Part shown: positions 8,060 through 8,292 of the stretch, piece by piece
How positions within the stretch are numbered: the stretch's first letter is position 1
How the letters are laid out: each line of letters opens with the position of its first letter
Source of the DNA: Escherichia phage mEp506
Strand: one strand, 5' to 3'
DNA: 40,128 bases
Sequence record: PV340542
The notes under the pieces: generated by a model
Told to the model about the DNA's origin: nothing
Database searches by the model: none
The model's input: the letters and a program-made list of their open reading frames with translations, nothing else
Made by a program: the position numbers and the translations under genes

Positions 8060-8292
8060 ATGAGTAATGAACTACTACGCTGGCGAAAAGAGGCTTCTAG
8101 TGAGGAATGGAAGCGACTCGCCGCATTAGCGAAAACTTCAGTTGGCTATCTTGACCAGATTGCATATGGATTTCGAAGAGCTTCCCTGATAAAGCGAATG
8201 CAATCGAAGAAGCTACTCGTAATTTCACGGCCTATAAACCCGTGAAAAAGGAAAACCTGGTGTTCGTATCGCGTAGAGCATCAGCAGCATAA
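8060..8292 (+). CDS. cro: Cro-like HTH regulator, apparently frameshifted (annotated ORF 8060..8245)
   Basis: HTH-like ...LAALAKTSVGYLDQIAYGFRRAS; the plausible continuation PDKANAIEEATRNFTAYKPVKKENLVFVSRRASAA lies in another frame ending at 8292, split at a CCC run (8184-8186). Confidence 0.55.

Follow-up and report, generated by a model that had tools for sequence, protein, structure and literature searches.

The cro gene of this lambdoid stretch of DNA is interrupted by the absence of a single C, and the most likely cause, to which we attach a probability of about 0.8, is the under-calling of a homopolymer in an unpolished assembly of an ordinary cro of the BP-4795 type. The stretch that was analysed, referred to here as the window, comprises the full 40,128 nucleotides of record PV340542 (Escherichia phage mEp506). 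It is a lambdoid, HK97/HK022-like phage or prophage of E. coli, with int at the left end and the tail fibre genes at the right end, and its closest phage, mEp234, gives 71% coverage of the first 25 kb. The ends of the window (1-75 and 39753-40128) lie inside an HK022-type att core and the flanks correspond to the torS/torT site at which the CUPF12 prophage is inserted. The record thus seems to contain a complete phage, or a prophage trimmed at att, rather than an arbitrary slice of chromosome, and its att-core ends fit a phage opened at attP and a prophage cut at its att sites alike.

In the reading that we prefer, the real gene would encode a 77-aa helix-turn-helix regulator of the BP-4795, or Stx1-phage, immunity type, which would be transcribed rightward from P_R. 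One C of the CCCC that spans Ser42 and Pro43 (TCC CCT) would have been lost in base calling, within a long-read or otherwise homopolymer-error-prone assembly made without correction by accurate reads, such that cro would be intact, with CCCC, in the actual phage. If it acts as lambda Cro does, the protein would bind O_R and so shut off cI synthesis in lytic growth. The argument for an artefact draws on (i) the presence of CCCC in every finished relative, (ii) the recurrence of the same C4-to-C3 loss in contigs assembled from raw runs, the R9.4.1 run of isolate C 236-04A among them, and (iii) a pattern across the window of six -1 frameshifts, zero nonsense codons and few flanking substitutions, which is unlike natural decay.

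The break lies within a conventional immunity region, where the order is divergent cI, control region, cro, a nutR-like element and cII, and where the same order is found in relatives. The features of this region are as follows:

7242..7946, minus strand: intact cI-type repressor of 234 aa, LexA/S24 family, from its ORF; annotated as cI or LexA-family regulator in BP-4795, AU5Stx1 and ECONIH5
7947..8059, no strand assigned: cI-cro intergenic control region of 113 bp, with repeats and inverted repeats (O_R, P_RM and P_R by position)
8060..8245, plus strand: truncated cro ORF of 61 aa (42 native and 19 out-of-frame residues), from its ORF and a tblastn search with ECONIH5 Cro
8184..8186, plus strand: CCC run with one C missing, where homologues have codon 42 as TCC followed by CCT; CCCC in all finished homologues
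8185..8292, plus strand: 3' part of cro in the -1 frame, Cro residues 43-77 and stop, with 35/35 residues identical to ECONIH5 Cro
8300-8312, plus strand: boxA-like CGCTCTTTTCACA, read from the sequence
8331-8345, plus strand: P22-type boxB-like hairpin TCGCT-GACAA-AGCGA, read from the sequence; a computed fold recovers part of the hairpin
8431..8727, plus strand: intact cII-family activator, from its ORF; CII is annotated in relatives

The control region contains repeated half-sites of the ATGATAAA type together with one promoter-like site (7966-7994), and we infer from its position that it is the operator region. The element at 8300..8345 resembles the nut sites of lambda and P22 and may be described as a nutR-like element. 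To the left of cI, between it and the N region, two overlapping small ORFs on the minus strand (6122-6827) match mEp234 genes that are annotated as HicA toxin and HicB antitoxin, and represent a toxin-antitoxin pair located in the immunity-left region.

A preliminary description of this DNA, made from the letters of the window, had proposed that a Cro-like regulator was split by a 1-bp deletion, with the helix-turn-helix ORF ending at 8245 and a plausible continuation in the -1 frame running to 8292, just before boxA, the two being joined at a CCC run. All of this is borne out. The 61-aa ORF starts with the ATG at 8060 and stops at 8243-8245, having left the conserved frame after Ser42, at C8184-C8186, while the -1 frame is open from 8185, reads PDKANAIEEATRNFTAYKPVKKENLVFVSRRASAA and stops at 8290-8292, a few bases ahead of the boxA-like site. 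Against relatives the alignment contains a single gap, where they have CCCC and the window CCC. The same description had suggested that an alignment of homologues would tell which C-terminus is conserved, and it is the alternative-frame peptide that recurs in the homologues of 76-77 aa; homologues ending like the 61-aa ORF, which would have spoken for the annotated end, occur in no finished sequence. In tblastn with ECONIH5 Cro, residues 1-45 are matched in frame 2 and residues 43-77 in the -1 frame, at 96-100% identity. Similarity to the family thus extends over the full length of the protein, albeit only across two frames, and a single uninterrupted cro ORF of 76-77 codons is absent from the window, where there are 61 codons and then a stop. 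The match of the split gene to the intact gene of relatives is far beyond chance.

The relatives in question are well-known phages. Around 150 phage records match the cro region, of which 33 extend over most of the query; these are chiefly Stx1- and Stx2-converting phages, BP-4795 included, with 485 bases aligning to 484 of the query. The gene is annotated in BP-4795 and AU5Stx1 as 234 nt encoding 77 aa, and an uninterrupted cro of 234 nt is found in BP-4795, AU5Stx1, ECONIH5 and CP53, with the fourth C as the sole difference at the break. The Cro proteins of the Stx1 phage BP-4795 (CAD88826.1), of AU5Stx1 (ANJ63821.1) and of ECONIH5 and C 236-04A (WP_001549086.1) are encoded by the same gene in the same cI-cro-nutR-cII place, at loci with 96.7-99.8% DNA identity to that of the window; in ECONIH5 and C 236-04A the cro differs from that of the window by one base only. 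With one C restored, the gene of the window encodes 77 aa that are identical to WP_001549086.1 and agree with BP-4795 Cro at 76/77 positions. What separates it from a BP-4795-type cro is that it has CCC rather than CCCC at codons 42-43, which gives the 61-aa ORF.

Beyond these close relatives, a protein search with the repaired Cro returned 74 clusters, nearly all of 76-77 aa and aligned with full coverage down to 57% identity, and the repaired protein matches the family with E = 1e-40. The clusters span the Enterobacterales, with members in Escherichia, Klebsiella, Pantoea, Serratia, Cronobacter, Providencia, Proteus, Arsenophonus and others. Conservation continues past the break, where A52, K64, L67 and F69 are invariant and P43, K45, A46, I49, E50, F56, V62, E65 and V68 are invariant or at least 90% conserved. 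In an AlphaFold model of a homologue with 97% identity (mean pLDDT 84), helices occupy residues 4-11, 14-23, 28-35 and 45-53, after the last of which an ordered extended segment runs to about residue 70; on this model, the frameshift removes predicted helix 4 together with the conserved tail.

How the protein relates to better characterised regulators is a matter of position more than of sequence. Like lambda Cro, it is a small regulator whose gene opens the rightward operon, with cI facing it and nutR and cII downstream, and we infer from this placement a role in the lysis-lysogeny switch comparable with that in lambda. In contrast, no detectable sequence relationship with lambda Cro was found, and the predicted fold of four helices and an extended tail is not that of lambda Cro. 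A weak profile match to chains named 'antirepressor protein Cro' (8co2 and 8c7k; E = 0.02-0.035) covers residues 16-54 and spans the break, but it is below any safe threshold. A link to the YdaS-type (Cro-superfamily) regulators is suggested by some sources, which name homologues YdaS/Cro superfamily, and by one distant homologue that adjoins ydaT. A scan with all Pfam models (E up to 1) gave nothing for either the repaired or the truncated protein, the gathering score of the HTH_3 and YdaS-type models not being reached, and a precomputed PF01381 match exists in only one distant homologue. The NCBIfam scan of Cro gave noise only, and PHROGs gave only a generic repressor family, with the truncated form matching phrog_35 weakly (E = 0.002).

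Where, then, does the CCC allele occur? The 124 complete E. coli genomes with this stretch, 33 phage records, 33 IMG/VR contigs and 5 metagenome contigs all have CCCC and never CCC; among the GTDB representative genomes neither the CCC nor the CCCC allele is present. The same C4-to-C3 loss is seen, however, in at least nine Logan contigs, each of them assembled from a single SRA run and together drawn from at least eight runs, and it affects several haplotypes and one distant homologue. The exact 61-aa product of the window, along with three other products of 61-62 aa broken at the same codon, is found in Logan contigs only. With respect to the runs behind these 61-62-aa versions, two are documented as Nanopore and a third is probably so. 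SRR22784821 is a Nanopore run of a strain that was assembled by a hybrid approach (PMC10190287), and SRR19090788 is placed by a text index in a study that sequenced its own metagenome samples on MinION R9.4.1 (PMC9836091), so that the run, too, is probably from this platform. It is established that consensus sequences of this kind contain homopolymer indels by which gene calls become fragmented (PMC9262707).

The most direct control comes from isolate C 236-04A, whose reads in SRR21857881 were generated on MinION R9.4.1 (Guppy 5.0.7 sup, 13x) and whose chromosome, CP109924, was finished with BGISEQ short reads (PMC9933702). The Logan contig of this run encodes the exact 61-aa protein of the window. 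The finished chromosome, which ranks in the top two among matches to the window, has an intact cro of 234 nt with CCCC. Over 1236 nt the contig departs from CP109924 at three places, namely a G4 read as G3, the cro C4 read as C3, and a Dcm site CCTGG miscalled as CACAG. Homopolymer losses and the miscalling of Dcm sites are classic R9.4.1 errors. As the contig has CCC where the corrected genome of the same isolate has CCCC, the identical missing C in that isolate is an artefact. The prophage of C 236-04A is itself partly degraded, with an IS2 to the left of cI and, near the intact cro, a replication gene (2893-3441 of the locus from NZ_CP109924.1) that is annotated as frameshifted with an internal stop.

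Further contigs show what kind of context is involved. Those from SRR22784821 and SRR32346281 represent different haplotypes, yet besides the C4-to-C3 loss in cro they share a T6-to-T5 loss that splits cI, and one of the two also has A6 reduced to A5 in the O gene. Since a live lysogen would hardly have a frameshifted cI, the losses in these contigs look technical, and the shared cI loss, with SRR22784821 being a Nanopore run, points to recurrent, site-specific base-calling errors. In the locus from SRR10662281 (209-1002), the distant cro homologue is 62 aa as called and adjoins a split ydaT. Within this contig TTCCCC has become TTCCC in both the cro homologue and ydaT, which suggests that it is the TTCCCC context, rather than the gene, that attracts the error.

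The same kind of loss is spread through the window. Runs were compared with those of mEp234 and the prophages of YZ_2_2, CUPF12, ETEC1749 and ECONIH5, a set of five close relatives, and among about 440 comparable runs of at least 4 bases the window has nine that are shortened and one that is lengthened. The rate of loss climbs with run length, from 1/307 four-mers through 4/92 five-mers to 2/7 seven-mers, and there is an additional A8-to-A7 loss beside the nine. Six of the shortened sites are coding and four are non-coding, and, cro apart, the coding losses amount to five -1 frameshifts in four genes (int, the tape measure gene twice, K and J). The sites outside cro are:

1108-1111, minus strand: int (75 to about 1148), G5 to G4; residues 1-13 (MGRRRSHERRDLP) of the HK022-type integrase are cut off
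29117-29123, plus strand: tape measure gene (27096-30375), A8 to A7; first frameshift
30012-30015, plus strand: tape measure gene, C5 to C4; second frameshift, which leaves the gene in three pieces
31772-31775, plus strand: tail-tip protein K (C40 peptidase; 31473-32182), G5 to G4; split at residue 101
37033-37037, plus strand: host-specificity protein J (33613-37160), G6 to G5; last 41 aa replaced
19078-19083, 19149-19154, 24314-24317 and 26334-26339: non-coding runs shortened in comparison with relatives

Around these lesions the sequence is otherwise close to that of its relatives. There are 2 substitutions in 1201 nt of the cro region, none between the window and CUPF12 over positions 1-1416 once the G loss in int is set aside, and 0-2 per 1.2-1.4 kb around three of the lesion sites, while no nonsense substitution is present in any real gene of the window. 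Exact look-ups of the truncated tape measure and J products returned no record, and scans of GTDB and IMG/VR with junctions specific to the window gave no match. The shortening of non-coding runs is in part likely to be natural polymorphism, since the relatives themselves differ in the length of the G run near cos (8 or 11 bases). The record carries about one homopolymer loss per 4 kb.

Taken as a profile, these changes resemble the homopolymer indels by which Nanopore R9.4.1 data fragment genes, in that single bases are lost from runs of 4-8 bases about once per 4 kb, ORFs are split, and R9.4.1 reads of an isolate with an intact corrected genome have the identical site miscalled. They differ in that the window lacks an excess of errors at Dcm motifs, mismatches at CCWGG standing at 2.5% against 2.1% overall, and contains a 14-bp deletion that is outside this mode of error. 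The losses are thus single-base, dependent on run length and found in both coding and non-coding sequence, as in an under-call artefact, with the 14-bp deletion as the one exception. That exception affects the following gene:

15657-15966: lambda-family holin S gene, with 14 bp (TAACGAGCGTGTTT) missing after 15876

The 14 bp are present in all three aligned relatives, and in no case have they been lost among about 1143 complete E. coli genomes with this holin. The deletion truncates the holin ORF to 79 aa, within the third transmembrane segment, and an exact look-up of the 79-aa product returned no record. It is not a homopolymer event, and may be either a real mutation or another kind of error in the consensus.

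The holin bears on the alternative that survives best, which we consider unlikely but worth weighing, that the missing C is a real slippage deletion within the C run of a decaying, grounded prophage with lesions in int, the holin, the tape measure, K and J. Such a cro-null prophage would be unable to complete the lytic switch and would stay locked in the lysogen, with no excision, no lysis and no tails. The 14-bp deletion, which is unique to the window and unlike a base-calling error, fits this picture, as does the fact that all the lesions lie in genes for lytic growth or mobility whereas cI and cII are intact. It also draws on the runs that are affected, since losses favour G/C runs of at least 5 bases (about 6/25, against about 3/137 A/T runs), a bias that slippage in vivo predicts and with which it is compatible. 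A further point in its favour is the cro of E. coli UTAK-10 (1061-1293 of the locus from NZ_CP168987.1), annotated as frameshifted, where a deletion of 1 bp, independent of that in the window, is recorded 4 nt ahead of the C tract. The base missing in UTAK-10 is a G outside any run, and PGAP calls the gene a frameshifted pseudogene. What weighs more heavily is that decay would have to have produced six -1 homopolymer frameshifts but no nonsense codon, IS insertion or large deletion in comparison with relatives, within segments that differ from them by so few substitutions. It would also have to have shortened non-coding runs in the same way, with nine shortenings set against one lengthening. 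Moreover, the identical change is an artefact in C 236-04A, an isolate of known true sequence, and CCC is absent from all the finished genomes and phage records examined.

The recurrence of the CCC allele could be turned around, such that the C4 tract at codons 42-43 would be a true recurrent mutational hot spot and loss of the C would be repeatedly selected in lysogens as it prevents entry into the lytic cycle, with the window representing a naturally grounded prophage in which int, the holin and the tail genes had been inactivated; this we regard as very unlikely. Phase variation of the tract was considered separately. Phase-variable homopolymer tracts are long, usually of 7 bases or more. 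The tract in cro is of 4 bases and is invariant in the 124 complete genomes and 33 phage records, with variants confined to contigs from raw SRA runs, and phase variation is thereby ruled out.

It is extremely improbable that full-length Cro is made from the split gene by programmed recoding, whether through a -1 ribosomal frameshift at UCC-CUG or through transcriptional slippage that adds a C. The two frames do overlap, and the -1 frame is open through the junction. Nonetheless, there is no X XXY YYZ heptamer, and re-pairing from GCU UCC CUG to UUC CCU would be mismatched in both sites, while a run of three Cs is far too short for transcriptional slippage. The homologues are all single-frame with no conserved recoding signal, and the five other frameshifts in the window would each require recoding of their own. 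Programmed frameshifting and transcriptional slippage are thus both rejected on the sequence of the junction together with the single-frame homologues. Finally, the 61-aa product is almost certainly not a genuine, functional short variant of Cro, for although it retains the first three predicted helices (residues 4-35) and the weak match to phrog_35, it has lost predicted helix 4 (45-53) and the tail with the invariant A52, K64, L67 and F69, its 19-residue tail is absent from finished genomes, and the other versions of 61-62 aa come only from contigs of raw SRA runs.

Homopolymer under-calling therefore stays as the preferred explanation, and most probably the organism itself has no such split. 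The cro gene is already known and is annotated in many Stx phages, so nothing new is present, and the main value of the analysis is as a quality flag on the record. Taken at face value, the record would be annotated with a shortened Cro, an integrase lacking its start, a tape measure cut into three and disrupted K and J proteins, and could then be mistaken for a defective prophage or for one that encodes novel short proteins. The wider point concerns the TTCCCC(T/G) sequence in a widespread Stx-phage cro, which is reproducibly shortened in Nanopore R9.4.1 data, and as a consequence a frameshifted cro in long-read assemblies of STEC needs the support of short reads before inactivation of the prophage is called. 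Were the deletion real, it would represent an ordinary example of prophage decay.
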